From the NCBI GenBank assembly GCA_963666115.2, contig CAXXET010000004.1, forward strand, positions 472,712 through 536,711: 64,000 bases of DNA, given 5' to 3'. A program made the translations under genes and the position numbers. Each line of letters begins with the position of its first letter. Position 1 is the first letter of the stretch. This stretch comes from Dehalococcoidia bacterium (GTDB lineage Bacteria > Chloroflexota > Dehalococcoidia > UBA6926). Positions 5,270 through 27,950 of this stretch are shown piece by piece. The notes under the pieces are model-generated. The model was not told the DNA's origin. It made no database searches and saw nothing but the letters and a program-made list of their open reading frames with translations.

Positions 5270-6346
5270 ATGACGAGCAGACTTATGCTACTTGCGCTAG
5301 CCGTCGTGGCAGGCCTGATGATCTTTGCGGCCTGCACAACCGAGGAAGACACACCTGTGCCGGCCGACGAGCCAACAGCGGCGCCGGTGGAAGAGGAGAT
5401 GAGCAGGCTCGCCACCGTCATACAGCGTGGCAAGGTCATCTGCGCGATCAACACGGTGCTTCCCGGATTCGGCGCGCTGGACGCGAACGGAAACAACGTG
5501 GGCTTTGACATCGATCAGTGCCGCGCCGTTGCAGCCGCCGTTCTTGGCGACGCCAACGCGGTTGAGTATCGACAGACCACCGCCGCGCAGCGCGGGCCGG
5601 TCATGCAGTCCGGCGAAGTCGATCTGATGGTTCGGAATACAACGTGGACGACTTCCCGCGACGCGACGTGGGGCAACTTTGCCCAGACGACGTTCTACGA
5701 CGGGCAGGGATTCATGGTCCCGGCAGACCTGGGCGTGAGCGATCCGGTTGAGCTGGACGGCTCCAGCATCTGCGTGCTCCAGGGCACGACGACGGAGCAG
5801 AACCTCCAGGACTTCATCAACCAGAACGGCCTGGACATCGAGGTTCTCACGTTCAGCGAGCAGCCGCCGCTGACGGAGGCATACCTGGCGGGACAGTGCC
5901 AGGGTGAGACGACCGACAAGTCCGGCCTCGTCTCGCTCCGCACGACGTATGACAACCCCAATGACCACGTCATCCTGGGCGCCACGATTTCCGAGGAGCC
6001 TCTTGGCCCCGTCGTGCCGCACGGCGACGACCAGTGGTACGACATCGTGAAGTCCGTCATCGCCATCCTGATCTACGCGGAGGCATTCGGGATCGATTCG
6101 ATGAGCGTGCCGACGGCAGCGACGGGCGACACAGCAGTTGACCGGCTGCTTGGCCTGGGCGACACGAGCTGGGGCCAGGAAGCGCTGGGCCTGGAGCAGG
6201 ACGTGGGACAGAAGGTCATCCGGCAGGTTGGCAACTACGGCGAGATCTACGACCGGCACCTGACGCCGCTGGGCGTCACCCGTGAGGGCAGCCGCAACGC
6301 GCTGTGGCTGAACGGCGGAGAGATCTACGCCGCTCCGCTCCGATAG
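5270..6346 (+). CDS. aapJ: General L-amino acid ABC transporter substrate-binding lipoprotein (AapJ/BztA)
   Basis: GFDIDQCRAVAAAV, RNTTWT, FYDGQGFMV, VGNYGEIY; lipobox FAAC. Confidence 0.92.
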   Translation: MTSRLMLLALAVVAGLMIFAACTTEEDTPVPADEPTAAPVEEEMSRLATVIQRGKVICAINTVLPGFGALDANGNNVGFDIDQCRAVAAAVLGDANAVEYRQTTAAQRGPVMQSGEVDLMVRNTTWTTSRDATWGNFAQTTFYDGQGFMVPADLGVSDPVELDGSSICVLQGTTTEQNLQDFINQNGLDIEVLTFSEQPPLTEAYLAGQCQGETTDKSGLVSLRTTYDNPNDHVILGATISEEPLGPVVPHGDDQWYDIVKSVIAILIYAEAFGIDSMSVPTAATGDTAVDRLLGLGDTSWGQEALGLEQDVGQKVIRQVGNYGEIYDRHLTPLGVTREGSRNALWLNGGEIYAAPLR

Positions 6347-6453
6347 ACAGCGGGACAAGCGCGTTCTGACGGCGTCCTGACGGACGCGACAGGAGCGAAT
6401 AAAGCGGGGGGCCGAATGCACGGCATTCGGTTCCCCGCTATTCTATTGGCGAG

Positions 6454-7665
6454 ATGGCGGAACCAACACGAAGCTTCCTGACCTACCAGGGCATCCCTGT
6501 CTGGCGCCACGCGGTCATCATCAAGTGGGCGCTGCAGATGGTATCGGCTGTCGCCGTCGTCACGCTGGTCTTCTGGTTCTTCTCCAACATCGCGTTCGCG
6601 ATCAATGACCGCGAGATTCCCTTCGGGTTCTCGTTCCTGAGCCGCGCGTACGGCACGCCGGTTCCGGAGCACGTGCTGCCGTATGAATCGACGGACAGCT
6701 ACGGCTACGCCCTTATCGTCGCCGCCGTCAACACAATCGTGTTGGCAATTGCGGGCGTGATCCTGGCAATTCTTCTCGGCACGCTCATCGGCATTGCGCG
6801 CATCTCCTCCAACTGGCTGGTCTCGCGCCTCGCCCTCGCCTACGTGGAGTTCTTCCGCAACGTGCCGCTGCTGGTGCAGCTTCTTTTCTTCTTCTACTTC
6901 ATCCTGCTCCTGCCGCCGCTTGCGGAGAGCTACAACCCGTTCGGCGTCATGTACATCAACAACGCGGGCTTTGCCGTGCCGTCGCCCATGCCCGCGGGCG
7001 AAACGGCATTCGCGATTGCGTGGGGCGTCGTGGCACTGGTCGGCATCGCGGCGGGGTTCGCTGCGCACAGGTCCCTCTCACGGCGGGAGACGCTGACGGG
7101 GCGGGTGTCCTATCCGTTGACGGCGGGCATCGCTGTGGCCGCCGGCATCGCGTTTGCAGCGTGGCTCGCGATTTGGGCGCTCGCCGGGGAGGCGCCGCTT
7201 GCAATCAGCACGCCCGAGCCCGAGGGGCGATTCGGCAGGATCGAGGGCGGTCTGCGCGTCCGGTCCGGGGCGATCGTGATGCTGATCGGGCTGGTCATGT
7301 ACACGGCGTCGTTCATTGCGGAGATCGTGCGGGCGGGCATCCAGTCCGTGGGGCGGGGCCAAACGGAGGCGGCGTCCGCGCTGGGCCTCAGGCCGGTCGG
7401 CGTGCTCCGCAACATCACGTTCCCGCAGGCGCTGCGGGTCATCGTTCCCCCGCTCATCAGCCAGTGCCTGAACCTGACGAAGAACAGCAGCCTGGCGGCG
7501 GCAATCGGCTTTGCCGACCTGACGAACGTGGCGATTACGATGACGCAGACCGCGCCCGCGATCTCCATCTTCCTGATCATCATGCTGGCGTACCTGCTGA
7601 TGAGCCTGGCGTGGTCGGCGGTGGGCAACCTGTACAACTGGCGCACGCGGATAGTGGGGACGTAG
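6454..7665 (+). CDS. aapQ: General L-amino acid ABC transporter permease (AapQ/BztB)
   Basis: YVEFFRNVPLLVQ, IAEIVRAGIQSVGRGQTEA, LNLTKNSSL. Confidence 0.9.
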   Translation: MAEPTRSFLTYQGIPVWRHAVIIKWALQMVSAVAVVTLVFWFFSNIAFAINDREIPFGFSFLSRAYGTPVPEHVLPYESTDSYGYALIVAAVNTIVLAIAGVILAILLGTLIGIARISSNWLVSRLALAYVEFFRNVPLLVQLLFFFYFILLLPPLAESYNPFGVMYINNAGFAVPSPMPAGETAFAIAWGVVALVGIAAGFAAHRSLSRRETLTGRVSYPLTAGIAVAAGIAFAAWLAIWALAGEAPLAISTPEPEGRFGRIEGGLRVRSGAIVMLIGLVMYTASFIAEIVRAGIQSVGRGQTEAASALGLRPVGVLRNITFPQALRVIVPPLISQCLNLTKNSSLAAAIGFADLTNVAITMTQTAPAISIFLIIMLAYLLMSLAWSAVGNLYNWRTRIVGT

Positions 7666-7668
7666 ACG

Positions 7669-8928
7669 ATGGCGACCGCACGAATGACACCTGGCGCGGA
7701 CCTGCCTCCGCCGCGCATGACGACGGGGCCGGCCGGCTGGGCCAGGGCTAACCTGTTCAGCTCGCCAGGCAACAGCGCCACGACCATCCTCGTGGGAGCG
7801 GTGAGCCTGTACCTGATCTGGCAGTTCCTGGGGTGGGCGCTTGGCCCGGCGGACTGGTCTGTCATCCCGACGCTGGGCGGCACGCTCATCATCGGCCAGT
7901 ACAACTCGGAGACGGTGTGCCCCTCGCAGGACTGCTTCTGGCGCCCGCAGGTGTCACTGCTCATCGGGGTGACGTTCTTCGGCATCCTGTGGGCAGTGGC
8001 GGCGACGGCGCTGGTGCGGGGCGTGGCGCTGACGGTGGCGTTCGTCTCGGCGGGAATGGCGTTGATGCCCCTGCCCTTCAGCGAGATGGGCATGGACGTG
8101 CGGCTGCTGCTACTGCTGAACATCCCCGCCGTCTTCCTGGGCTACTGGCTGGGCAAGCACACGCCGGTCAGTTCCACCAGGAACCTGATCATCATCGCGT
8201 TTGCCGGTTTCCTGTTGGTATACATCCTGTTGGGCGGCACAGTTTTCGGTTTCTTCGACGTTCCCGGTCTCCAGGTTGTGCCGTCGCGGTACTGGGGCGG
8301 GTTGACGCTGAACCTGCTGCTGGCGGCGGGCGGCATCACGGCAAGCCTGCCGCTCGGCATCCTCCTGGCGCTTGGGCGGCGCAGCAACCTGCCGTTCGTC
8401 AAGTTCACGTGCGTGGGCGTCATCGAGTTCTTCCGGGGCGTGCCGCTCATCACCCTGCTCTTCATGTCGCAGACGCTCCTGCCGCTGGCATTCCCGCGCG
8501 ATTTCCCGCTGGACGAGGTGATGCGGGCGGGAATCGTCATCACCGTGTTCAGCTCCGCGTACATGGCGGAGAACATCCGGGGCGGGCTGCAAAGCCTGCA
8601 CCGGGGGCAGACGGAGGCGGCGCGCGCGCTGGGCATGCCGCCGTGGAACACGACGATCTTCATCACGCTGCCGCAGGCGCTCCGCAACGTGGTGCCGGCC
8701 ATCGTCGGGCAGTTCATCAGCCTGTTCAAGGACACGACGCTGGTCTTCATCATCGGTATGTTCGACATCCTGCAGATCGGAAACTCGTTCATCGGCAGCA
8801 ACCGGGAGTTCCTGGACAACAGCCGCGAGCTCTTCCTGTTCATCGCGCTGGTCTTCTGGACGATCAATTACGGCATGTCATACGTGAGCCGGCGGGTTGA
8901 AGAGACCCTCGGCGTGGGACGCAGGTAG
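7669..8928 (+). CDS. aapM: General L-amino acid ABC transporter permease (AapM/BztC)
   Basis: [41 protein letters not shown]. Confidence 0.9.
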
Positions 8929-8962
8929 GCGCGGCGACGCCGGCGAGAGGGAGGCGAGACAG

Positions 8963-9733
8963 ATGACCACCAACGGGGACGCGCAGGCGAACGGCGAGGT
9001 TGAGGACATCATCATCGCGCGCGACGTGCATAAGTGGTTCGGCTCGTTCCATGCCCTGCGCGGGGTGTCCACGACGGTGAAACGCGCGGAAATCGTCGTC
9101 ATCCTCGGCCCGTCCGGCTCGGGAAAGTCGACGTTCATCCGCACGATCAACCGGCTGGAGGAGCACCAGCGCGGCGAGATCATCGTGGACGGCATCACGC
9201 TCTCGAACGACATCCGCAACATCGACGCCATTCGCAGCGAGGTGGGGATGGTGTTCCAGTCGTTCAACCTGTTCCCACACCTGACGGTGCTGAACAACAT
9301 CACGCTCGCGCCGATGAAGGTGCGGCACACGCCGCGCGCGGAGGCGGAGGAGACGGCGATGGGCCTGCTGGAGCGCGTGGGCATCCCAGAGCAGGCGCTG
9401 AAGTACCCGGCGGAGTTGTCCGGCGGCCAGCAGCAGCGCGTGGCGATTGCGCGGGCGCTGGCGATGCAGCCGCGGATCATGCTGTTCGATGAGCCGACGT
9501 CCGCGCTCGATCCGGAGATGATCAAGGACGTGCTGGACGTGATGCGGGAACTGGCGCACTCCGGCATGACGATGCTGGTGGTGACGCACGAGGTGGGGTT
9601 CGCGCGGGAGGTGGCGGACCGGGTGATCATGTTCGATGAGGGCATGATCGCGGAAGAAGGCCCGCCCAACGAGTTCTTCACCAACCCGAAGAGTGAGCGG
9701 GCGAAGCTGTTTTTGTCACAGATTTTGCACTGA
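8963..9733 (+). CDS. aapP: Amino acid ABC transporter ATP-binding protein (AapP/BztD)
   Basis: [35 protein letters not shown]; ATG after GGGAGG. Confidence 0.92.
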
Positions 9734-9790
9734 GGGGGGGACGCAACTCCCTATACCTTTCCAGGGTTTGCCCAAGACAACGGGTTCCCG

Positions 9791-9844
9791 CGACCTATTG
9801 ACACGTTCAGGTCGAGAGGGTAAGATATTCTTACCATTGGTAAG
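9791..9844 (+). promoter_or_regulatory. Sigma70-like promoter with overlapping operator-like palindromes
   Basis: TTGACA (9798-9803), 17 nt, TAAGAT (9821-9826); CGACCT/AGGTCG flanking -35; GGTAAGA-TAT-TCTTACC (9819-9835) and CTTACCA-T-TGGTAAG (9830-9844). Confidence 0.75.
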
Positions 9845-9853
9845 GACGTGCTC

Positions 9854-10147
9854 ATGGACAAGCAAGAAATCGTCAGCAAAGTAATCGAGACTGTGGCCGA
9901 TGTGCAGACAGTCGGTGGACGGCCCAGCGCAGGCATAGATGCATCTACGTGCCCGATCGGAGGAGTAGAGGGCTTCGACAGCCTCAATGGAGTGGAGGCA
10001 ACCGTCATGCTCTCGGGGGCCTTCGGGGTTGATCTGCCTGATGACTATAACCCTTTCGTCTCCAACGACGGGAGGCGAGCGCTGACGATTAGTGAGATTG
10101 CTGACAGTCTGAGTGCCTACCTGAAGCCGGAGGTTGTATCCAGATGA
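9854..10147 (+). CDS. Acyl-carrier-protein-like small acidic protein
   Basis: 97 aa; GFDSL phosphopantetheine-site-like motif followed by helix II-like VEATVMLSGAFGVDLP and C-terminal TISEIAD. Confidence 0.7.
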   Translation: MDKQEIVSKVIETVADVQTVGGRPSAGIDASTCPIGGVEGFDSLNGVEATVMLSGAFGVDLPDDYNPFVSNDGRRALTISEIADSLSAYLKPEVVSR

Positions 10148-10497
10148 CAGAACACGAGGAGCAGCGGAAGGCGGTCGCGTCTCGCCTGCGTCTGTCCAGG
10201 GAGTTGGCTGGCTTGACCCAGAGTCAGGTAGCCAAGAGCTTGGGTTGGCACCGTCCGACGATCTCCGAAATTGAGGCCGGACGTAGAAGAGTGTCCGCGG
10301 AAGAACTCTCCGCATTGGCCGCAATGTATGGGGTGAATATCCCTTGGATTGTGGGCGAACAGGGCGAAGGTTCGAATCCCGCCGTCGACCGAGTGAAGCT
10401 GGCAGCGAGGGAGTTGAGCAAATTGCGAGAGGAAGATCTAGATCGGGTCATCCAGGTTGTCCAAGCACTACGCACATCGAGGAGTGACACCGAGTGA
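10144..10497 (+). CDS. XRE-family HTH transcriptional regulator
   Basis: RLRLSRELAGLTQSQVAKSLGWHRPTISEIEAGRR; ATGA overlap with the upstream gene. Confidence 0.9.
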   Translation: MTEHEEQRKAVASRLRLSRELAGLTQSQVAKSLGWHRPTISEIEAGRRRVSAEELSALAAMYGVNIPWIVGEQGEGSNPAVDRVKLAARELSKLREEDLDRVIQVVQALRTSRSDTE

Positions 10498-11354
10498 ACA
10501 GTCAGCGGGCAATAGCCCGGCAAGCGATGGCAGCCGCTCTTCGTACCCGGCTTTCTGCCGGCTACGGCCTCGACCATGCCGTCTGCATTTACGATGTCGC
10601 CGAGAAGCTCGGCGTTGGCGTTCGTTTTCTTGACCTCCCCAGCATGGAGGGCATGTATTTGTCTAACCCAGTTCCGACTATCTTCGTCTCGTCATTGCGC
10701 CCAGCAGGCCGCCAAACATTTACTTGCGCCCACGAACTGGGGCACCACAGCCGGAGCGATGGAGCAGAGATTGATGAGCTAATCGATCAACAGGACAGAA
10801 CCAGTCGAAACCCCAGGGAATTCGCTGCGGACTGCTATGCAGGCGCGCTTCTAATGCCAAAGATGGCCGTTTCCAAGGCGTTTGCGGTCCGAGGATGGGC
10901 CATGGAGGAGTGCACTCCTGAACAAGCCTACATGGTCGCAAGCTACTTCGGCGTAGGATACGCAACGCTGGTACACCACATGAGAAGCGCACTCCATCTT
11001 CTACCAGATACAAGGGCGCAGGCGCTGCTGAAGATGAATCCTCGCAAGGCACAGGCCCTTTTCTTGGGATGGCAGACTCCGGACACGGTTATAGCGGTGG
11101 ACGCGCACTGGATTGGAAGACCCATCGATGCGGAAGTGGGCGACCTCATATTTGTCGAAGGCGGAGCGGAGGTGGATGGCACCTGCATTGAACTGTCTTC
11201 AGACGTGGCCCACGGGCGCGTCTTCCGCGCAACCAAGCCTGGAATTGGGCGCCTGGAATGTGGTGCCGCTTGGTCCGCATTCGTGCGAGTCTCCCGACGC
11301 GCCTATGTTGGGCGGGCTCTGTACCGGCACTGGGAAGAGGTAGAGGATGAATAG
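10494..11354 (+). CDS. ImmA/IrrE-family Zn metallopeptidase
   Basis: FTCAHELGH (HExxH) and EFAADCYAGALLMP. Confidence 0.9.
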   Translation: MNSQRAIARQAMAAALRTRLSAGYGLDHAVCIYDVAEKLGVGVRFLDLPSMEGMYLSNPVPTIFVSSLRPAGRQTFTCAHELGHHSRSDGAEIDELIDQQDRTSRNPREFAADCYAGALLMPKMAVSKAFAVRGWAMEECTPEQAYMVASYFGVGYATLVHHMRSALHLLPDTRAQALLKMNPRKAQALFLGWQTPDTVIAVDAHWIGRPIDAEVGDLIFVEGGAEVDGTCIELSSDVAHGRVFRATKPGIGRLECGAAWSAFVRVSRRAYVGRALYRHWEEVEDE

Positions 11355-12120
11355 GCCCCTTATGATAGAAGAAGACAATCTGTCAGTTGCTTGGGCGAAG
11401 GCACTTCTCGGGGTAGTGAAGGAGAACGAACTTTCGCCCCTTACGGTAGTCATCCGGGGATTCGACGGTGGAAGGCCCCCGGAAGTGGAAGCGATACGCC
11501 AGCTCCTTGATGGTGCGCTTGCTGCGGATGCAAAGGGACTATCTTGTAATGAGGTCGCCAACACTTTGTTCCCTGACTCGCTCTGGAACCCACGCGCCGA
11601 CCGTCAGCAACTCTACGAGAGGTACCGACGGATCATGCCGCGTGTGCTGAAGAACCGTCGCAACAGGTATGGGGTCTATTTCCAGCGCCTTATGTCCTAT
11701 GGCCAAGACTCCGCCTACGAGGGCGGCATAAACCAATTGGAGCAGATCATCCAAACGTGGCATGCCGGCAATCACCGCAGATCCGCATTGCAGGCAGCGA
11801 TTTTTGACCCCAGGAAGGACAACATCAATCAGCCTAGGAGAGGCTTTCCCTGCCTGCAACAGGTCGCATTTGCACAGGAAGGTTCCGACGGACTGATGGT
11901 CACAGGATTCTATGCCACGCAGTTCATCTTTGAACGGGCGTACGGAAACTATCTGGGGTTGTACCGCCTCGGCCGTTTCATGGCCCAAGAAATGGGCAGG
12001 AAACTTAGCGGGGTGGTTTGCGTGGCCAGTCCAGCAAAACGCGACAGGACTAAAGGTTATCTTGGGGAAGTGGCACGTGGTGTCGAGGGAATCTTGAAGG
12101 ACTTGCGGGAGGACAGGTGA
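11347..12120 (+). CDS. Divergent thymidylate synthase-like protein
   Basis: YFQRL...INQLEQII, FPCLQQV (catalytic PC), AYGNYLGL; canonical RSxD not visible. Confidence 0.65.
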   Translation: MNRPLMIEEDNLSVAWAKALLGVVKENELSPLTVVIRGFDGGRPPEVEAIRQLLDGALAADAKGLSCNEVANTLFPDSLWNPRADRQQLYERYRRIMPRVLKNRRNRYGVYFQRLMSYGQDSAYEGGINQLEQIIQTWHAGNHRRSALQAAIFDPRKDNINQPRRGFPCLQQVAFAQEGSDGLMVTGFYATQFIFERAYGNYLGLYRLGRFMAQEMGRKLSGVVCVASPAKRDRTKGYLGEVARGVEGILKDLREDR

Positions 12121-13814
12121 CAGAGCAAGAAGCTCTGGGTAGGCTCATCGTCTTTGAGGGGCCGGATGGCGTGGGCAAGAGCACCCTAGCGCAACAACTC
12201 ACGAACCGCCTGGGTGAGGCGGGCGTTCCTTGTAGATACTGGGCGTTTCCTGGGAGGCAGTACGGCTCTCTGGGCCGTCTGGTGTATGACCTGCACCACG
12301 ACCCTCCGAGCCTTGGCCTCAGCAAAGTCAATGAAACTAGTCTTCAAGTCCTGCACATTGCAGCCCATGTGGACGCGGTAGAAAGAGAGATACTGCCCGC
12401 CCTTCATGCAGGGACATGGGTAGTCCTGGATCGGTTCTGGTGGTCCACTTGGGTCTATGGTGCAGCGTACGGAGTCCCGGAGCAATCTTTGCAGGCGATG
12501 ATCCACCTAGAGGAACTCCATTGGGGATCATTCAAGCCGGACGTGGTGTTTTTGGTTGAGCGCGAGCATGGAATCCCGGATGATGGCGGGAAACAACACA
12601 GTCAGATATTGGACGGCTATCGTCAACTTGCGAGTCGTGAACGACTTCGCTCGCGCGTGGAAACGCTCCGCAATGATTCTTCAGTCGAGGACGCATTAGA
12701 CGCCGCGTGGAAAACGATAGCGACTGTCGATCAAGGCTTCAGACAGAAAACGGCCGTCGCTGCCGACGCGGAGGAGGCCCTTCAAGCCGAACTGCCTGAC
12801 GACAAACGCCGATGGTCGCGAGGTGTGTCGCACCTGTCGCCAGCCAAGCCCACTGCCGTATATGACACGTATTGGCGCTTCGCTGCCGAGCGGCAAGAGG
12901 TCTTCTTCCGCAGACTTGATGGTTCTCCACCTCCCTGGACTAATGACTCCATATTGGCTCGCTTCAAATTCACGAACGCCTACCGCGCCTCCGACAGGGT
13001 TAGCCAGTACCTCATCCGCGACGTCATCTACGCAGGGGCACAGGGCGTTGAGGAGGTTTTCTTCCGAACGTTACTGTTCAAGATGTTCAACAGGATTGAG
13101 ACATGGGAGCTTCTCACGGCTGCCCTTGGCGAGGTCGAATATTCATCGTATTCGTTCGGCGCGTACGATAAGGTTCTCTCCAATGCGCTCACTAATGGTC
13201 GAACCATCTACTCCGCAGCCTACATCATGCCTTCAGTGGGCCGCGTCTTCGGTTATTCCCGAAAGCACCGTAATCATCTCAAGCTTTTGGAGAGGATGAT
13301 GGAGGATGGGCTCCCGCACAGGATCGCAAAGGCACTCACCATGCGGGACGCCTTCGAAATGCTGCGGTCCTATCCCTCCATCGGAGATTTCCTCGCCTAT
13401 CAGTTCGTAACCGACCTGAACTACAGTGAGATTACCGACTTCTCAGAGATGGAGTTCGTTGTGCCAGGCCCAGGTGCCCTTGACGGCATCCGCAAATGCT
13501 TCGCTGACCTCGGCGGTTTGACCGAGGCAGACATTATCAGGGTCGTCACTGAACGCCAGGAGGAAGAGTTCGAGCGACTTGGCTTGCGGTTCCGTGACCT
13601 TTGGGGAAGGAGACTTCAGCTCATTGACTGCCAGAACCTCTTTTGTGAGGTCTCGAAGTATGCCCGTGTCAAGCACCCTGCCTCCAGGGGGGTTGGCAAT
13701 CGTTCGCGCATAAAGCAAATTTATCGTCCTACAGCGGAGCCGGTCGAATATTGGTACCCACCTAAGTGGGGCATCAACAGCTTAATGCCTTCTCAAGGAG
13801 CCACTGATGTTTAG
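12117..13814 (+). CDS. dTMP-kinase-like domain fused to an aGPT-Pplase1/5-hmdU DNA kinase helical-like (base hypermodification) domain
   Basis: N-term FEGPDGVGKST and LDRFWWS; C-term YWRFAAERQ...PPWTNDSIL..FKFTNAYRASDRVS, IGDFLAYQFVTDL, GPGALDGI, CQNLFCEVSKY. Confidence 0.8.
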   Translation: MTEQEALGRLIVFEGPDGVGKSTLAQQLTNRLGEAGVPCRYWAFPGRQYGSLGRLVYDLHHDPPSLGLSKVNETSLQVLHIAAHVDAVEREILPALHAGTWVVLDRFWWSTWVYGAAYGVPEQSLQAMIHLEELHWGSFKPDVVFLVEREHGIPDDGGKQHSQILDGYRQLASRERLRSRVETLRNDSSVEDALDAAWKTIATVDQGFRQKTAVAADAEEALQAELPDDKRRWSRGVSHLSPAKPTAVYDTYWRFAAERQEVFFRRLDGSPPPWTNDSILARFKFTNAYRASDRVSQYLIRDVIYAGAQGVEEVFFRTLLFKMFNRIETWELLTAALGEVEYSSYSFGAYDKVLSNALTNGRTIYSAAYIMPSVGRVFGYSRKHRNHLKLLERMMEDGLPHRIAKALTMRDAFEMLRSYPSIGDFLAYQFVTDLNYSEITDFSEMEFVVPGPGALDGIRKCFADLGGLTEADIIRVVTERQEEEFERLGLRFRDLWGRRLQLIDCQNLFCEVSKYARVKHPASRGVGNRSRIKQIYRPTAEPVEYWYPPKWGINSLMPSQGATDV

Positions 13815-14814
13815 CTTGTTTGAGGGACAAACGGCAGATCATGTCTGGCAGCAAGTTGTGGAGGCATTCCGGGCGGATGAAGGTGTATTCGCGCAGCCGA
13901 GCAAGGGCGGAGCAACCAGAGAGATGCTACACGCGACCATCACGATAAGTGACCCGCGGCAGCGATGGGTTATATCTCGACAGCCTCCACTGAACATCGC
14001 CTTCGCCCTCGCCGAGGTCGTCTGGATCATGACTGGTCGTAACGACCTAGCTTTCTTGGAGCCATGGAACAGCAGACTTCCCGACTATGTGGGAACGGGG
14101 CCTGCACTACATGGGGCGTATGGGTACCGGCTCCGCCACCATTTCGGCGTCGATCAACTTGAGAGAGCATATCAGGCACTGAGAGGTAACCCAGATTCGC
14201 GGCAGGTGGCACTGCAAATCTGGGATTCGTCGATTGACTTGCCGCATTCTGACGGAGCGCCTACTGACAAGGACATTCCCTGCAACGTACTTTCGCTTTT
14301 GAAGGTACGGGAAGAAAGGCTCGAGTGGCTTCAGGTAATCAGAAGCAACGATCTATTCCGCGGAGCTCCGTACAACTTTGTCCAGTTCACTTCTCTCCAA
14401 GAGATCATGGCCGGATGGCTCGGAATCGACTGTGGTGCCTACCACCAAGTGAGCGACAGTCTCCACATTTACGACCATGACGAGGAGAGCGTGCTCACTT
14501 CGGCGCCGGTACCGGATCTGCCCTCAAGTACGGATTCGCTTGCTTTGCCAAGGGAGGTGTCGGAGGCCGCATTTGGGAACCTGGCCAACCGGATCGAACT
14601 CATGATTGCGCCTAATCTCACACACGCTGCCCTGGAGCGAATCATGCTCTGGGATGAAGGAGCGGAATCGTACAGGAATATGTTGGCTGTTCTTGTCAGC
14701 GAAGCGGCTCGCAGGCACAAATGGTGGGACATTTGCGATAAGGCAATGACGACCTGCACTAACCCCCTGTACTACGAGTTGTGGCGTCGATGGCTGGACA
14801 GGTTCAGCGTATAA
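13807..14814 (+). CDS. Thymidylate synthase family protein (putative dUMP hydroxymethylase/methylase)
   Basis: GAYGYRL, DIPCN, RSNDLFRGAPYN (Asn at the dUMP-specificity position), SLHIY. Confidence 0.85.
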   Translation: MFSLFEGQTADHVWQQVVEAFRADEGVFAQPSKGGATREMLHATITISDPRQRWVISRQPPLNIAFALAEVVWIMTGRNDLAFLEPWNSRLPDYVGTGPALHGAYGYRLRHHFGVDQLERAYQALRGNPDSRQVALQIWDSSIDLPHSDGAPTDKDIPCNVLSLLKVREERLEWLQVIRSNDLFRGAPYNFVQFTSLQEIMAGWLGIDCGAYHQVSDSLHIYDHDEESVLTSAPVPDLPSSTDSLALPREVSEAAFGNLANRIELMIAPNLTHAALERIMLWDEGAESYRNMLAVLVSEAARRHKWWDICDKAMTTCTNPLYYELWRRWLDRFSV

Positions 14815-14936
14815 TTGCGGCCGGCTGAGCCAGATGAGGATGCTCTCAGATGGGGAGCACCAACTTGAACCCGCCCCGAACGAGCGAGTTTGTCGTACAG
14901 ACGGTACCTTGGCGGAACCGGACGATTCGAACCCAT

Positions 14937-15140
14937 TCACGCCCGCCTGTTCCGTTCCGCTGCCGCCTCAATTGCCTCACGGTATGGGCCTTCGCGCCTG
15001 AAGTGGCCGTCTCTACCATAGACGTTGGAGCCATTTACTACTTGGACAGGAGCGGTGCGTGTCCGCCCGTCTGCCTCCACAATCGTTAGCTCCCATTCTC
15101 CACGACGATTGATCGTGAATTCTCTCCTTGTTCCTGGCAT
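14937..15140 (-). CDS. Small hypothetical protein (67 aa)
   Basis: MPGTRREFTINRRGEWELTIVE...; GAGGGGG RBS upstream of ATG 15140. Confidence 0.5.
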   Translation of the reverse strand: MPGTRREFTINRRGEWELTIVEADGRTRTAPVQVVNGSNVYGRDGHFRREGPYREAIEAAAERNRRA

Positions 15141-15200
15141 CTTTGCGCCCCCCTCATCCATGTGTGCTTGCATTGTACGCGCCTTGTGACGAGCGGGTGC

Positions 15201-15230
15201 GCTGGATTCCTGCTTTCGCAGGAATGACGG
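15201..15230. repeat. Short palindromic repeat (ATTCC-N10-GGAATGAC family), copy 1
   Basis: GCTGGATTCCTGCTTTCGCAGGAATGACGG, identical to 17548-17577. Confidence 0.85.
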
Positions 15231-15348
15231 CGGGTTGGTCATTTCCGGGCGCGGGAGCGTCGGGGCTGTTTGGCGGTTTCGTGGCGGGCGGCGCCTGTAG
15301 AGTACAATGTCGCATACGGTTGTCCGGCGCTTGAGGGGAGGACGTTCG

Positions 15349-16425
15349 ATGAAAGCTCGTTTTCTGCTGCTTGGCGCGTTTGCCCTTGCGCTGTTGGTGT
15401 TGGCGGGCTGCGGCGGGGACGGCGATTCTGCGGATACTGCCCCGGCTGATTCGCCGGAGCCTGCGGGGACCGTGGACTCCGGCACCGTTGTGGCGGAAGC
15501 CGCGACCGCCGTGGTGGAGGCCATCGCAACCCGCGACGCGGGATCATGGGAGGATGAGCGGGCAGAGGCGCAGGTGGCCTTCGTGTCCGTCAGCGCAGGA
15601 TTGGATCACGCCTGCGCCCTGTTGATTGACGGCCTAATCATGTGTTGGGGTTCCGGAACAGGCCGGGTTGCGCCGCCGGAGGGGATATTCGCGTCCGTAA
15701 TCTCCGGGCGCCTACACTCCTGCGGGCTGAGGCCGGACGGCTCGGCGGAGTGCTGGGGCAGAGACATCGAAGGCCAGGCCGCGCCGCCGGAGGGGGAGTT
15801 CACCGCCCTCAGCGGCGGCAATTTTCACACCTGCGGACTGAGGCCGGACGGCTCAGTCGAATGCTGGGGCAAGGACGATTTCGGCCAGGCGTCGCCGCCA
15901 GAGGGGGAGTTCACCGCCGTCAGCGCCGGAGAGGATCACACCTGCGGACTGAGGCCGGACGGCCTGGTAGAGTGCTGGGGCAAGAACGAGTCCGGCCAGG
16001 CGTCGCCGCCGGAGGGGGAATTCGTCTCCGTCAGCGGAGGCCAGTTTCACACCTGCGGGCAGAGGCCGGACGGCTCAGCAGAGTGCTGGGGTGGGAACGA
16101 CTGGGACCTGGCCGCGCCGCCGGATGGGGAGTTCACCGCCGTCAGCGCAACATGCGGGCTGAGGTCGGACGGCTCGTTGGAGTGCTGGGGCTATAAAGAC
16201 TTCACCCGTGTGTGGACGGGGGAATTCGCCGCCATGGCCTCCGGATTGTACCAAGCGTGCAGCGTGAACACGGACGGCTCCGTGATCTGCTGGCCGACCG
16301 GGTTCTCGATAAATCCTCCCCGGGAGTTCACTTCCGACATCACCGGGGTTCATTACACCTGCTGGGGGGTCCTTGAGGGTGAGGGCTACACAAACACCTG
16401 TCAGGGCAAGGAGGACGTTCGATGA
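15349..16425 (+). CDS. RCC1/BLIP-II-like repeat beta-propeller lipoprotein
   Basis: Lipobox LAGC; repeated HTCGLRPDGSVECWG...GQASPPEGEFTAVSAG. Confidence 0.88.
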   Translation: MKARFLLLGAFALALLVLAGCGGDGDSADTAPADSPEPAGTVDSGTVVAEAATAVVEAIATRDAGSWEDERAEAQVAFVSVSAGLDHACALLIDGLIMCWGSGTGRVAPPEGIFASVISGRLHSCGLRPDGSAECWGRDIEGQAAPPEGEFTALSGGNFHTCGLRPDGSVECWGKDDFGQASPPEGEFTAVSAGEDHTCGLRPDGLVECWGKNESGQASPPEGEFVSVSGGQFHTCGQRPDGSAECWGGNDWDLAAPPDGEFTAVSATCGLRSDGSLECWGYKDFTRVWTGEFAAMASGLYQACSVNTDGSVICWPTGFSINPPREFTSDITGVHYTCWGVLEGEGYTNTCQGKEDVR

Positions 16426-17528
16426 AGACTCTCTTTCTCTCGATTGGCGCGTTTGCCCTTGCGCTGTTGCTGGCGGCGGGGTGCGGCGGCGGGGGCGATT
16501 CTGCGGATTCCGCGCCGGCGGATCAGCCGCAGCCTGCGGGGACCGTGGACTCCGGCACCGTTGTGGCGGAAGCCGCGACGGCCGTGGTGGAGGCCATCGC
16601 AACCCGCGACGCGGGATCATGGGAGGATGAGCGGGCAGAGGCGCAGGTGGCCTTCATGTCCGTCAGCGCCGGGTACCGAAATACGTGCGGCCTGTTGAGC
16701 GGCGGCATCGTTGTCTGCTGGGGCTTCACCGATGAGGTCGTGGATGATCGACCGGACGTGGAGTTCACGTCCGTGAGCGCCGGAGGTACTCACGCCTGCG
16801 GGCTGACGCCGGACGGCTCGGCACAGTGCTGGGGCAAAGACCACGCAGGTCAGGCGACACCGCCCGACGGGGAGTTCACGACCATCAGCGCCGGGTCCCA
16901 CCACACGTGTGGAGTGAGGCCCGACGGCTCGGTTGAGTGCTGGGGCGCGAACGAACTCGGCCAGGCCACGCCGCCGGAGGGAACATTCACGTCCGTCAGC
17001 GGCGGGTGGGAACACACCTGTGGGCTGAGAACGGACGGCTCAGTCGACTGCTGGGGGTCGAACGAGTGGGAAGGTCAGGCTACGCCGCCGGACGGAACGT
17101 TTGACGTGGTCAGCGCCGGGATGTTCCATTCCTGCGGGGTGAAGACGGATGGCGCAGTGGCCTGCTGGGGCCTTGACGAATACGCCCAAGCGTCACCGCC
17201 GGAGGGGGATTTCTCATACGTCGGCGCGGGGCGGGAACACACCTGCGGGGTGAGGACGGACGGCTCTATTGCCTGCTGGGGCGAACACCGCCGGGGCGAG
17301 ACATGGGGGCCGGAGGAGGAGTTGACGGCCATCGAGACGGGGGAGAAGCACTCCTGCGGCCTGACAGATGATGGCGCCGTGACCTGCTGGGGGAACACCA
17401 CAGGCGTGGGCGCGATGCAACAAACCCAGGAGTTCACATCCGCCGTCACCGGGATAGGCTACACGTGCGGGCTGAAGGAGTATGGCGCGTATACGACCGC
17501 TTGTTATGAGTCGGACGACGGGGGCTAG
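16422..17528 (+). CDS. RCC1/BLIP-II-like repeat beta-propeller lipoprotein (tandem paralog)
   Basis: Lipobox AAGC; same repeats; N-terminus nearly identical to the upstream paralog. Confidence 0.88.
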   Translation: MKTLFLSIGAFALALLLAAGCGGGGDSADSAPADQPQPAGTVDSGTVVAEAATAVVEAIATRDAGSWEDERAEAQVAFMSVSAGYRNTCGLLSGGIVVCWGFTDEVVDDRPDVEFTSVSAGGTHACGLTPDGSAQCWGKDHAGQATPPDGEFTTISAGSHHTCGVRPDGSVECWGANELGQATPPEGTFTSVSGGWEHTCGLRTDGSVDCWGSNEWEGQATPPDGTFDVVSAGMFHSCGVKTDGAVACWGLDEYAQASPPEGDFSYVGAGREHTCGVRTDGSIACWGEHRRGETWGPEEELTAIETGEKHSCGLTDDGAVTCWGNTTGVGAMQQTQEFTSAVTGIGYTCGLKEYGAYTTACYESDDGG

Positions 17529-17547
17529 GGTAAGCGGGTTCCCGCCT

Positions 17548-17577
17548 GCTGGATTCCTGCTTTCGCAGGAATGACGG
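17548..17577. repeat. Short palindromic repeat, copy 2
   Basis: Identical 30-mer to 15201-15230, same orientation. Confidence 0.85.
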
Positions 17578-17586
17578 AGGCGGTTT

Positions 17587-17662
17587 TGGTGGAGCCGAGG
17601 GGATTCGAACCCCTGACCTCCTGCTTGCAAAGCAGGCGCTCTCCCGACTGAGCTACGACCCC
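17587..17662 (-). tRNA. tRNA-Ala(UGC)
   Basis: GGGGTCGTAGCTCAG...CCTGC-TTTGCAA-GCAGG...GGTTCGAATCCCCTCGGCTCCACCA, 76 nt. Confidence 0.97.
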
Positions 17663-17686
17663 ACGATTGAGCGGCGGGCGTCTCTT

Positions 17687-17821
17687 CTATCCCGCCGATG
17701 CGCCGGCGATGGCGAGGGTGATGATCGCCCCGGATACGCAGACGGCCGCCGCCAGGATGCTCAGTTCAAGCAGGCCGAACCCACGCCGGCGCTTTCTTTC
17801 GCCCCCACGATCCTCGTCCAT
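17687..17821 (-). CDS. 44-aa membrane peptide with a prepilin-like G|FxxxE motif
   Basis: MDEDRGGERKRRRG-FGLLELSILAAAVCVSGAIITLAIAGASAG; GAGGTG RBS. Confidence 0.55.
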   Translation of the reverse strand: MDEDRGGERKRRRGFGLLELSILAAAVCVSGAIITLAIAGASAG

Positions 17822-17890
17822 GCTCTCACCTCGCTTTGTTCCCGCGCCGCCCCTCTATTATGCCTTGTGAGCGAATGCGCGGATGCGGAC

Positions 17891-18385
17891 CTAACCGGCG
17901 GAGTCGGGGTCTGACGAGCCGACGTCTTCGCGGCCCGATGCGCCGCCGAGGGCTTTTTGAAGGGTGTCCCACGCGAGGACGGCGCACTTGACGCGGGCCG
18001 GATAGCGGGACGTGCCCTGCAGGGACATCAGGTCGCCCATCGCAGCCTCATCAACCTCTTCGCCAAGGATCATGGCGCGGAAGCCGCTGGCAAGCGCGTT
18101 CGCGTCCTCAATGGAACGCCCCCGCATGGCCTCCGTCATCATCGACGCGGACGACTGGGAGATGGAGCAGCCCTGCCCCACAAAGCCGATGTCCTCGATC
18201 GCGCCATCCTTGATGCGGGCGGTCAGGCGAACCTCATCCCCGCACACCGGGTTGAACTGCGTCAGGTCAGCGTCCGGGGATTCCAGCACGCGGTTGTTTC
18301 GAGGCAGCCGGTAGTGGTCCAGGATCAGCTCCCGGTACAGATCGTCGAAATACGGCTCGGGCTCACTGCCTGCCAAAGAGTTCAC
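17891..18385 (-). CDS. sufU: SUF system NifU-like protein
   Basis: LYRELILDHY, NPVCGD, GCSISQSSAS, RVKCA; start approximate. Confidence 0.92.
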   Translation of the reverse strand: MNSLAGSEPEPYFDDLYRELILDHYRLPRNNRVLESPDADLTQFNPVCGDEVRLTARIKDGAIEDIGFVGQGCSISQSSASMMTEAMRGRSIEDANALASGFRAMILGEEVDEAAMGDLMSLQGTSRYPARVKCAVLAWDTLQKALGGASGREDVGSSDPDSAG

Positions 18386-25985: not shown

Positions 25986-26066
25986 TCACTCATCCGTTAT
26001 GTTGCCGCTCATTCAATTGTAGTGGCGCAAAGCGGAGGCGTTCAAACGTGGGAACCGGCGACTGCC

Positions 26067-26660
26067 TTATGCTTCGCGCAGGTTATCGAGCAGCCGCTTG
26101 GCGTGGGGCGACGCGGCGGCCACCTTGTCCGGGTCGATTACTCCGATCAACTCAAAGCCATCCCTACCCTTGCGATATTCGCCCCTTGCCGTGCGTCGGG
26201 TGGCATTGGCCAAACCGCTGAGCACGTCATCCTTTGGGATTTCCTCTATGGCAGCCGGATTGCCAGGCAAGCTGTTCGGCCGGAACTCGTTGCCGAAGAA
26301 AGTGCTAAGGGCGTCACGATCGGCGAGAAACCACGATTCCATCACTTGAACCATGAGGTGGCAGTCGTCGCCCGCCGACCCCTGTGGCCGCTGCCATCCG
26401 TCCTGTTCGCGAAGGTGCTGCCATGGGTCAGCGGCTGTTACCGGCCCCTCTGCATCGACAAGCAGCATTGCGTCGCTATTGTCCCTGTCAACGGCGTTCG
26501 AAAAATCGTCGTAAGCGCTTTCCCGGCTGCCACACAGATTGACTCGTGGCATCCTGCCCTGCAGGTTAGCCTTCTCAAAGAACTTTTGAAACGCCTGCCG
26601 CTCAGCTGAATTGACTCGCCTGCGACTGCTGCCGCCCTCTACGAAGATCGTCGCACTCAC
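26067..26660 (-). CDS. DUF4276-like (TOPRIM-like) protein
   Basis: IFVEGG, LLVDAEG, MVQVMESWFLAD, YRKG; overlaps the ATPase stop. Confidence 0.75.
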   Translation of the reverse strand: MSATIFVEGGSSRRRVNSAERQAFQKFFEKANLQGRMPRVNLCGSRESAYDDFSNAVDRDNSDAMLLVDAEGPVTAADPWQHLREQDGWQRPQGSAGDDCHLMVQVMESWFLADRDALSTFFGNEFRPNSLPGNPAAIEEIPKDDVLSGLANATRRTARGEYRKGRDGFELIGVIDPDKVAAASPHAKRLLDNLREA

Positions 26661-27859
26661 CAGCGGTTGCCCCCGATGTGACCGCGGCTCCACAACTCGC
26701 CCAGGCTGTATTTCTCAAGCCAGTCCTTGAGATCATCCTTATCAAGCCGTCGTAGCTCAGTACCGTTGTCACCCCTTTCCGTGACAATGACGGACTCAGG
26801 GGTGTCAGACAGGGCATCGACGAGGATGTCTGAGTGTGTCGTGACGACTAGTTGAGTACGCTCTGAGGTTTCGCGCAGGAGCTTGGCGATTTCAGGGATG
26901 ATGTCGGGGTGCAGGCCCTTCTCCGGCTCTTCAAGGCAGATGAGGGGCGGCAGTTCCGGTTGACAGAGGATCGCTAAGAGGCACAGGTACTGGAGGCTCC
27001 CGTCTGACATCCGCATAGCGGGGATTGGAGCATCCAGGCCATCCTCGTGAAATGCCGTGTGGATGAATGATCCCGTCACAACGGTGCGAATGTCCTTTAT
27101 CCGCGGATAGAACTCACGCAACCGCCCAACGATCTCATCTTTCGCTTTCGGGCTGCTCTCCATGCTGTTGAGTACCGTGCTTAGATTGGCACCGCTCTCC
27201 ATCAGCGAACCAGGCATGCCCGGGGTTTGGGGGCGCCGGATTTCAGAGAACCGCCCAGTGTCAAATGACCCGTAAGATCGAATACCCATAAATTCGTCGG
27301 ACAGCAAAAATATCTCCGGATAAGCGATTGACTCACGAAGTTGGACAAGTATCGACTTGTCCGAATCGAAGTGAGGCGCCGTCAATTCGGTTGTCTCTCG
27401 TGATTGGGAGTCCCAGTCCGTTCGAACCGCCGTTGCGGCACGCTTGTCCCTTCTATACTCGTAGAGAGTCTCCCAATATGCCGTAGAGCGGCTGCCCTTC
27501 CGCTTGATCCATATGCGCTCACTGGCTATATCCACTCCGAGAGAAAGCAACGCCTTCACCAAGGACAACTCGTACCGTATGCCGCCAATATACGGAGGAT
27601 TGACTCCTATTGTCGCCACTCCTGTACGACCCTGCCCCTTCCAGAGCCACTCATCAATTCCCCCACCATCATGTATCGCCTTGTCCAAATCAGTAGCCGC
27701 CGCCTTTAGCAGGCCAACGGCGTGGATGAAGTTGGACTTGCCTGTCGCGTTCGGTCCGATGAGGACGTTGAGCGGCTCCAGGTCGATGGCCGTTTCTTCC
27801 GGCCCGAACGAGAGGATGCCGCTCAGCCGCAGCGCGCTAATCAGCCTGTTGTCAGCCAA
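26657..27859 (-). CDS. ABC/AAA_21-type ATPase (COG4637-like)
   Basis: LIGPNATGKSN, MSDGS, CLEEPEKGLHP, VTTHS, LGELW. Confidence 0.85.
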   Translation of the reverse strand: MADNRLISALRLSGILSFGPEETAIDLEPLNVLIGPNATGKSNFIHAVGLLKAAATDLDKAIHDGGGIDEWLWKGQGRTGVATIGVNPPYIGGIRYELSLVKALLSLGVDIASERIWIKRKGSRSTAYWETLYEYRRDKRAATAVRTDWDSQSRETTELTAPHFDSDKSILVQLRESIAYPEIFLLSDEFMGIRSYGSFDTGRFSEIRRPQTPGMPGSLMESGANLSTVLNSMESSPKAKDEIVGRLREFYPRIKDIRTVVTGSFIHTAFHEDGLDAPIPAMRMSDGSLQYLCLLAILCQPELPPLICLEEPEKGLHPDIIPEIAKLLRETSERTQLVVTTHSDILVDALSDTPESVIVTERGDNGTELRRLDKDDLKDWLEKYSLGELWSRGHIGGNRW

Positions 27860-27950
27860 CGACCTTGCCTCCTCTCATCGCGTCTCATCGGTTGCAGGCG
27901 CCATGACCGCACCGCCCAACTATTCTAACCTGTCTAACCCGCCACTAATC

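Follow-up and report, generated by a model that had tools for sequence, protein, structure and literature searches.

A 64,000-nucleotide (nt) stretch of the genome of a Dehalococcoidia bacterium (GCA_963666115.2, contig CAXXET010000004.1, positions 472,712-536,711 of the forward strand; henceforth termed the window) contains a six-gene cassette, g1-g6, that is almost certainly a conserved, mobile and autorepressed unit. The cassette encodes a small carrier-protein-like protein (g1), an XRE-family helix-turn-helix (HTH) repressor (g2), a zinc metallopeptidase (g3), a divergent enzyme with the thymidylate synthase (TS) fold (g4), a thymidylate kinase (TMK)-like domain fused to the domain PF18723 (g5) and a ThyA-family enzyme (g6). 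An anti-phage function is fairly probable, and our best explanation is an inducible defence against phages that works through altered thymidine chemistry, a reading that we believe and doubt in about equal measure. Phages escape restriction by thymidine hypermodification; the same enzyme families are found here in a repressor-gated bacterial cassette that occurs across many phyla. New in this analysis are a five-gene core, a carrier protein linked to AcpS genes and a conserved operator.

Conservation and control of the cassette

An earlier reading of the sequence alone (the first-pass annotation) had described six translationally coupled genes, and the open reading frames (ORFs) agree with it: all six lie on the + strand in one operon (9854-14814) in which each gene overlaps the next by 4 or 8 nt (Table 1). 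The stretch described there had begun at 9791. g1 probably starts at the ATG at 9854, which has an AAGGA seven nt upstream of it, and the promoter and operator are located in 9791-9853.

Homologues of g5 number at least 8000 at E <=1e-3, and the 119 best non-self matches (60-77% identity), many on megabase contigs, all carry both PF02223 and PF18723. A kinase-seeded set of 80 genome loci, with architectures assigned by tblastn, spans Chloroflexota, Acidobacteriota, Planctomycetota, Verrucomicrobiota, Cyanobacteria, Thermodesulfobacteriota, Latescibacterota, Legionellales, Bacteroidota and others. All six genes follow each other in order in 34 of these loci, g1-g5 without g6 in 11, g2-g5 with or without g6 and with g1 undetected in 8, and g1-g4 followed by a stand-alone PF18723 gene in 3; g5 and g6 alone make up 19 loci, and 5 show other partial patterns. 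Genes g2-g4 lie upstream of the kinase in 58/80 loci.

An independent set of 80 loci was seeded with g4 and drawn from metagenome contigs. Where at least 2400 nt of upstream sequence was available, g1, g2 and g3 preceded g4 without exception (38/38). A g5 homologue follows g4 on the same strand and within 4 kb in 48 of the 51 loci for which 1500 nt or more of downstream sequence exist (the misses being L121, L122 and L124); 29 of these homologues carry the TMK domain and 19 are PF18723 alone. At least 4500 nt of downstream sequence remained in 25 loci, of which 15 contain g6, 3 a MazG_C protein and 7 neither. By these g4-seeded counts, g1-g2-g3-g4-PF18723 is the conserved core, around which the TMK domain, g6 and MazG act as exchangeable extras. 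A survey of gene order had been proposed as a check in the first-pass annotation, and in both sets the order proved to be conserved.

Sister loci vary this theme. MazG with a MazG_C domain often stands at the position of g6, and other loci carry a dCTP-deaminase-like protein with a hydrophobic, membrane-spanning-looking C-terminal tail, a ThsB-type TIR protein, Nmad2, or XRE-M78 fusions together with a PIN protein. Four loci with g5 and g6 only (L013, L014, L015 and L018; approximately 6200-7750, - strand) have a 350-aa XRE-M78 fusion and a PIN-domain protein upstream on the opposite strand, which replace separate g2 and g3 as apparent regulators. A cultured example of the cassette is located on a conjugative plasmid of Sinorhizobium fredii NXT3, where the annotated order is thymidylate synthase, dCTP deaminase, two hypotheticals (the second at the g1 position), HTH regulator, ImmA/IrrE peptidase, thymidylate synthase, "nucleotide kinase domain-containing protein", NTP pyrophosphohydrolase and holo-ACP synthase; ABC-three-component genes are close by. 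On a plasmid of Gloeothece citriformis PCC 7424 (L178, 114-4660), PF18723 is encoded by a gene of its own, which overlaps the end of one annotated as a cGAMP-activated phospholipase of the cyclic-oligonucleotide-based anti-phage signalling system (CBASS). Genes for a MazG-type enzyme, a TIR protein and a hypothetical protein come next, and the vicinity contains no TS-family gene.

Upstream of g1, a TTGACA (9798-9803) and a TAAGAT (9821-9826) are separated by a 17 nt spacer and match the promoter scan at 10/12 positions. Three half-sites, GGTAAG (9819-9824), CTTACC (9830-9835) and GGTAAG (9839-9844), bracket the -10 element, and the last of them runs into the AAGGA. Searching the 120 nt upstream of g1 for the pattern GTAA(G/T)-N4-6-(C/A)TTAC recovered the palindrome in 43/46 genome loci and 50/51 metagenome loci, against a background of 0.006-0.013 per window in which the sites themselves are counted; TTGAC/T precedes it by 15-21 nt in 32 genome and 33 metagenome loci. 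A palindrome conserved over the -10 element argues that g2 represses its own operon, with GGTAAG-N5-CTTACC as the predicted autorepression site.

The regulator and the peptidase resemble a known type of switch. g2 matches HTH_3 (6e-16), the PADLOC model capH (1.5e-11) and a PHROG transcriptional repressor (3e-16), and g3 matches Peptidase_M78 (3e-18) and capP (4e-16); the HTH/M78 switch that the first-pass annotation had recognised is part of the conserved unit. With HELGH at residues 80-84 and HExxH kept in 48 sequences, g3 is predicted to be an intact M78 peptidase of the CapP/ImmA kind. CapH/CapP of CBASS and ImmR/ImmA of ICEBs1 likewise pair an XRE HTH protein with an M78 metallopeptidase and have an operator at the promoter that they control, as predicted here from sequence. 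Unlike these pairs, g2 and g3 lie within the effector operon behind the carrier-protein gene, and g3 has an additional conserved C-terminal half (~165-286, ~120 residues) that carries no assigned family.

The surroundings of the cassette were surveyed in 118 ORFs around 37 six-gene-type loci, considering the 25 most frequent of 86 Pfam families. Phage_integrase occurs four times, the type I restriction-modification (R-M) S subunit three times, and the type I R-M M subunit, HipA, AAA_15 and AAA_21 twice each, next to one McrBC and transposases. AbiEii-like ATPases are among the proteins in these flanks, and PADLOC tallies of the flanks concur on the type I R-M matches. Against this background and with ThsB-TIR and Nmad2 in sister loci, the defence role put forward in the first-pass annotation is plausible. 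Capsid, terminase, portal and tail families are absent from the 25 families, and the flanks vary between loci; a prophage reading was rejected on these grounds. Judged by these families and flanks, homologous clusters do not lie mostly inside intact prophages, and their genes do co-occur: the order is conserved and the cassette is accessory.

Table 1. Features of the window discussed in the text (positions in nt of the window).
Feature	Position	Strand	Description
Promoter-like site with palindromic operator	9798-9844	+	from sequence and promoter scan
g1	9854-10147 (ATG) or 9848-10147 (GTG)	+	small acidic ACP-like carrier protein, 97 aa / 99 aa
g2	10144-10497	+	XRE-family HTH repressor, 117 aa
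g3	10494-11354	+	ImmA/IrrE-type M78 zinc metallopeptidase, 286 aa
g4	11347-12120	+	divergent thymidylate-synthase-fold enzyme, 257 aa
g5	12117-13814	+	TMK-like kinase fused to PF18723, 565 aa
g6	13807-14814	+	ThyA-family enzyme, MilA/hydroxymethylase clade, 335 aa
Variable insert	9734-17586		between ABC-transporter ATPase gene and tRNA-Ala(TGC); cassette, gap, two RCC1-like repeat genes
tRNA 3'-end-like fragment	14910-14935	-	~95 nt downstream of g6; T-loop, acceptor 3' strand, CCA
33-nt direct repeat	15201-15233 and 17548-17580		two copies, 97% identical
RCC1-like genes	15307-16425 and 16422-17528		tandem paralogues
Second GC dip	~26000-28000		GC 0.56-0.59 vs ~0.65-0.69 nearby

Enzymes of the cassette and its carrier protein

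g6 matches Thymidylat_synt (PF00303, 2e-20) and phrog_5131 (1e-61) and contains the motifs PCN (158-160), RSND (179-182) and PYN (188-190) as well as His220 and Tyr222. Its nearest solved relative is the CMP 5-hydroxymethylase MilA (PDB 5b6d, 5jnh), with an E value of 3e-28 compared to 4e-13 for the best true TS; MilA is also the best fold match of g4, and the nucleophilic cysteine is common to these enzymes. In the residue map, Cys159 of g6 corresponds to Cys155 of MilA, Arg132 to Lys133', Ser180 to Ala176 and Asn190 to Asp186. According to the parts of the MilA study available to us (PMC5175136), Arg and Ser mark deoxyribo-specific enzymes and Asn marks uracil-specific ones. In contrast to the ribo- and cytosine-type residues of MilA, Arg132, Ser180 and Asn190 imply that g6 should act on dUMP, and we predict a dUMP-specific enzyme of the hydroxymethylase (MilA) clade. 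g6 is not the housekeeping enzyme: the host genome encodes ThyX and a separate TMK elsewhere, and g6 is its sole ThyA-family match.

The kinase fusion g5 matches Thymidylate_kin (PF02223, 4e-15) at residues 13-148 and PF18723 (HMUDK_hel, 5e-114) at residues 246-523, the latter over profile positions 1-279 of 281. An alignment-based structural model, with a predicted local distance difference test score (pLDDT) of 88, divides the protein into a kinase domain (1-213), a disordered linker (214-239) and the C-terminal half. The PDB fold matches listed for the model are all thymidylate kinases that align to the N-terminal domain (TMt 0.71-0.85), and G20, K21, D105 and R106 are invariant in 45 sequences. 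Residues 1-213 are thus predicted, from sequence and model, to be a TMK-like P-loop deoxynucleoside monophosphate (dNMP) kinase. In the C-terminal half, PGPG (450-453) and Cys510-Glu511 are invariant and shared with a phage PF18723 ORF, which is 29% identical to this half (E 2e-26). We take the PGPG to resemble a helix-hairpin-helix (HhH) hairpin.

Among phages, the best matches to g5 cover only residues 233-553 at <35% identity, and none of 455 phage records covers 80% of the protein. A PaMx11-like phage encodes a 189-aa P-loop kinase directly followed by a separate PF18723 gene; this kinase matches PF18748 weakly (E 0.0012, below the cut-off), and the N-terminal half of g5 has no similarity to it. 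Since the kinase domain of g5 belongs to the TMK family, g5 repeats the phage gene pair but with another kinase family. The first-pass annotation had called the C-terminal domain aGPT-Pplase1-like. Two phage ORFs annotated as aGPT-Pplase clade 1 indeed underlie the tblastn match and the one that was scanned matches PF18723, which therefore appears to be the domain labelled aGPT-Pplase1 in phage records.

g4 yields no Pfam match and is supported instead by TIGR03283 (4e-11). Its model (pLDDT 93) adopts the TS fold and matches MilA best among PDB structures (E 1e-9, TMq 0.61). The g4 family comprises 990, 616 and 238 representative clusters at E 1e-3, 1e-10 and 1e-30, respectively, and the nucleophile, Cys169, is invariant in 30 sequences. 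An hhalign comparison with g6 (E 0.0022) places Y189-A190-T191-Q192 opposite R179-S180-N181-D182, and N201 opposite N190. Compared with MilA and g6, g4 thus has Ala190 and Asn201 and a tyrosine at the position of Arg179 of g6, and no motif resembling HIYD of g6 follows N201. The retention of Cys169 and Asn201 combined with the replacement of RSND suggests a remodelled sugar-phosphate pocket in an enzyme that keeps the base-reading Asn.

Such a pocket might also serve recognition. g4 together with g1 could sense a nucleotide made by phages that use 5-hydroxymethyl-pyrimidines and signal to g3, upon which g5 would phosphorylate or derivatise 5-hydroxymethyluracil (hmU) in the phage DNA. Of the two modes of action proposed in the first-pass annotation, poisoning of phage replication and attack on 5hmU-containing phage DNA, this corresponds to the second. 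The invariable company of g1-g4, regulators included, in the g4-seeded loci fits this idea, as does the combination in g4 of an intact nucleophile and base-reading Asn with replaced RSxD residues, and PF18723 partners a DNA 5-hydroxymethyl-deoxyuridine (5-hmdU) kinase in PaMx11-like phages. A g6 of its own, encoded by most cassettes (15/25 loci with room for it; 38/80), would however be needless if only pre-existing hmU were attacked. Phages with hmU in their DNA are a small minority, whereas the cassette is found across many phyla, and we know of no sensor role of the TS fold. Altogether, we consider sensing of this kind decidedly unlikely.

The assignment of g1 as a carrier-protein-like protein draws on several features of its sequence. 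The PP-binding match (PF00550) is weak, with E 0.0084 and 16.8 bits below the 20.8-bit gathering cut-off. Within this match, the motif GFDSL holds the putative phosphopantetheine-bearing serine (Ser45 in GTG numbering, Ser43 in ATG numbering), which is kept in 37/37 and 31/31 aligned homologues in two sets. The best Atlas cluster for g1 scores 0.95 and contains PF00550 in 23% of its members, which we treat as a lead only. In addition, phosphopantetheinyl transferase (PPTase) genes of the ACPS family adjoin the cassette in 6/80 loci from several phyla: an AcpS-type gene lies directly upstream of g1 in three cyanobacterial loci, and the Sinorhizobium plasmid copy also has an AcpS gene beside it. 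The genome of the window encodes two PPTases, both away from the cassette. We predict on this basis that g1 is a carrier-protein-like protein with a genetic link to AcpS genes. To our knowledge, no known defence system has such a link.

A carrier protein and a PPTase are hallmarks of secondary metabolism, and MilA, the nearest solved relative of both g4 and g6, belongs to mildiomycin biosynthesis. The cassette could accordingly be imagined as a small cluster that makes a natural product, a modified pyrimidine nucleoside or nucleotide, with MilA or BcmA (bacimethrin) as precedents. This is very improbable given that g6 has the Arg, Ser and Asn of deoxy-uracil enzymes instead of the Lys, Ala and Asp of MilA/BcmA and that the six proteins match no adenylating, condensing, MilB-type N-glycosidase or exporter family. 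Control by XRE/M78 and the TIR, Nmad2 and MazG neighbours also indicate conflict systems, and the phage clusters for thymidine hypermodification in which PF18723 occurs have 5-hmdU in DNA as the substrate of their characterised steps.

Known systems and a proposed mechanism

Two kinds of known system come close to the cassette. The domains concerned were reportedly first predicted by Iyer et al. 2013 and Burroughs et al. 2015. In the sections of the DefensePredictor paper available to us (Science 2026, PMC13092281), thymidylate synthase and 5-hydroxymethyluracil kinase belong to the domains for which a role in E. coli defence was newly validated, based on transcription units that were cloned with their native promoters and reduced the plating or plaque size of E. 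coli phages. The legend to Fig. 3C lists TS, dNMPk, 5hmdUk and NMAD, four labels that may belong to one system. These sections give neither a mechanism nor mutants for the TS/5hmdUk system, and they present aGPT-Pplase, MazG, MazG-C, dUTPase and NMAD systems as predicted and not yet validated, citing Burroughs et al. 2015. Compared by domain labels only, the cassette resembles this set in that g6 (PF00303) overlaps g5 (PF02223 and PF18723) by 8 nt. The 19/80 loci with g5 and g6 that lack g1-g4, several of them adding ThsB-TIR and Nmad2, match the domain list as far as the available sections give it. Unlike the DefensePredictor set, the six cassette proteins have no Nmad match, Nmad2 being confined to sister loci, and the cassette adds the ACP-like protein, the XRE repressor, the M78 peptidase and the second TS-fold enzyme.

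The other relatives are the thymidine-hypermodification clusters of phages. According to the available passages of Lee et al. 2018 and 2021, 5-hmdU in DNA is the substrate both of P-loop 5-hydroxymethyl-deoxyuridine DNA kinases (5-HMUDKs), which phosphorylate it, and of Pplase2, which attaches amino acids to it; these passages contain no assay of Pplase1. The former Pplase2 is now PF18724 ("ADDT"). A 2026 NAR paper, in the parts available, describes Pplase2 as an enzyme with an HhH-containing fold that depends on a metal ion and on a conserved catalytic Cys, and names dCMP deaminase and dTTPase/dUTPase as helpers of the phage pre-replicative route, the same helper activities as those of the dCTP-deaminase-like and MazG enzymes in our sister loci. 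In phages, PF18723 adjoins TS/hydroxymethylase or 5-HMUDK genes, and in the clusters of PhiW-14, SP10, ViI, M6 and PaMx11 it is found with a ThyA-family dUMP hydroxymethylase and a kinase; the order kinase then PF18723 in PaMx11-like phages is that of the g5 fusion. The likeness to phage machinery that the first-pass annotation had noted therefore holds for PF18723 and the ThyA-family relatives and fails for the kinase half, which is of the TMK family and not PF18748 like the phage DNA kinase. Also in contrast to the phage clusters, ADDT/Pplase2 (PF18724), pyridoxal-phosphate and radical S-adenosylmethionine enzymes were not detected among the six proteins, and the cassette is chromosomal or plasmid-borne and repressor-controlled.

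Of the features that define these two closest systems, the cassette lacks NMAD, the PF18748 kinase and ADDT. Literature searches found no paper on the six-gene cassette, the carrier protein or the operator, and the ACP/XRE/M78/second-TS module, the AcpS link and the operator appear to be undescribed. The earlier statement that no characterised defence system has this gene set needs to be narrowed with regard to the TS and 5-hydroxymethyluracil kinase domains validated by DefensePredictor, and stands for the module, which the available sections of that paper do not mention.

In the anti-phage scheme that we favour, g2 would keep the operon nearly silent until an infection or DNA-damage signal leads g3 to cleave it. 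g6, and perhaps g4, would then convert dUMP to 5-hydroxymethyl-dUMP. Phosphorylated by the TMK-like domain, this nucleotide would enter and displace the dTTP pool and be built into replicating DNA, which in an infected cell would be mainly that of the phage. PF18723 would act on the 5-hydroxymethyluracil, either presenting it for phosphorylation or transferring a group onto the base, and the modified DNA would be poorly transcribed, replicated or packaged. This last step gains some plausibility because, according to the available parts of PMC6457204, enzymatic phosphorylation of 5hmU in the template switches in vitro transcription off. We regard the proposed hmdU chemistry as possible rather than probable, and the scheme is least certain in what it assigns to g1 and g4.

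Several observations weigh against this reading. The scheme gives g1 and g4 no necessary role, though both are the most faithful companions of PF18723, and the route through hmdUTP is not a universal core because 19/48 g4-linked PF18723 genes come without a TMK domain and 7/25 loci with room for them have neither g6 nor MazG_C. At the level of single proteins, no residue of g6 separates a hydroxymethylase from a methylating TS, and a PF18723 profile search of PDB sequences found no solved relative. Aligning the g5 profile by hhalign with one phage ADDT gave a probability of 0.08%, so that a link between PF18723 and Pplase2 is not significant by this comparison; a scan for close relatives of ADDT yielded four. 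PADLOC 2.0 holds no model for g4, g6 or PF18723, and neither the window nor a Legionellales copy has a blastn match, at the nucleotide level, in 5,426 E. coli genomes. As to context, the flanks in the window consist of ABC-transporter and RCC1-like genes with no defence genes, and the flank tally across loci, covering 25 of 86 families, stands without a matched control.

A further reading gives g1 a chemical role. Holo-g1 might itself take part in the reaction, its phosphopantetheine thiol or a group loaded onto it being joined to the C5-methylene of the uracil by g4 or PF18723. We rate this as a long shot. A complex prediction of g1, g4 and the PF18723 domain scored 0.80, compared to 0.76 with an unrelated protein as chain 2, and speaks neither for nor against it. 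If the reading is true, the reaction would leave hmU-containing phage DNA with a protein-nucleotide or protein-DNA adduct that blocks replication and packaging. Such an adduct would explain why g1, g4, PF18723 and AcpS genes travel together, and would represent the first carrier-protein-dependent nucleic-acid modification in immunity. Specific catalytic residues are now named as mutation targets, and the S. fredii NXT3 plasmid provides a cultured, tractable source. The chemistry, once solved, could point to a novel means by which viral DNA synthesis is poisoned and to new DNA-modifying enzymes for biotechnology.

The insertion site in Dehalococcoidia

Within its own class the cassette is rare. 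PF18723 is present in 2/201 sampled class genomes (2/146 of high quality) and in 1/10 other sampled congeners, and the genome of the window has one copy. Congeners align with the window up to ~9733, where the ABC ATPase gene stops, and again from 17587 with tRNA-Ala, breakpoints which place the cassette in a variable insert of 7.85 kb. In one congener (G203) both flanks are ~360 nt apart and the site is empty, while in another (G202) ~27 kb separate the ABC operon from the tRNA-Ala region; the site has the look of a hot spot for insertions. Related cassettes, recognised by g4/g5 or g5/g6 sequence at 64-68% nucleotide identity, are located elsewhere in G203 (C2:27972-29520) and in G049 (C1:1049813-1051012). 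The composition of the cassette differs as well, in line with the lower GC bias reported in the first-pass annotation: GC is 0.55-0.58 in the cassette versus 0.63-0.68 on both sides, and GC at third codon positions is 0.62-0.64 in all six genes versus 0.89-0.91 in the upstream ABC-transporter genes and 0.79-0.80 in the downstream RCC1-like genes. The cassette is horizontally acquired, accessory and located outside a prophage. The first-pass annotation had also seen no integrase or phage structural gene in the window, which holds for the ORFs at 7000-18000, the extent that was annotated.

About 95 nt behind g6 lies a fragment with the T-loop, acceptor 3' strand and CCA of a tRNA 3' end. ARAGORN makes no call there, and no full tRNA with such a 3' end was found genome-wide at up to 2 mismatches; the fragment may be a remnant attachment site. 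tRNA genes also occur <1 kb upstream of g1 in 4/80 genome loci (L002, L005, L047 and L075). As att-type direct repeats, only this fragment and a 33-nt repeat turned up, and neither brackets the cassette.

Mobility of this kind raises the possibility that the cassette serves its carrier rather than the host. Induced in the manner of ImmR/ImmA, it would hypermodify the DNA of the cell or of a mobile element and so shield it from restriction in the recipient, as a counter-defence. HTH/M78 pairs control integrative and conjugative elements as well as prophages, and the characterised uses of PF18723 with a TS-family hydroxymethylase all consist in DNA protection in phages. Copies on a conjugative plasmid, integrases (4/118 ORFs) and transposases in the flanks and the tRNA-like fragment agree with this. 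Yet only five to six genes are conserved and the flanks differ between loci, so that no larger element travels along, and the 7.85 kb insert contains no evident integrase. The six proteins include no detected DNA polymerase, ADDT/Pplase2 or phage-type PF18748 kinase. TIR and Nmad2 in sister architectures and a plasmid copy beside a CBASS-type phospholipase are typical of defence, and in the available account of that work E. coli gained phage protection from a related set of domains. We therefore consider element protection unlikely and keep the anti-phage reading as the better explanation.

The variable insert is shared with two tandem, lipoprotein-like paralogues built of 37-aa (111-nt) RCC1-like repeats, which are 90% identical over their first 263 nt. 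The 33-nt direct repeat brackets both of these genes; it is a hairpin-forming palindrome, with its second copy immediately ahead of the 3' end of tRNA-Ala. Further downstream in the window, GC drops once more over a stretch that may likewise be an acquired island.

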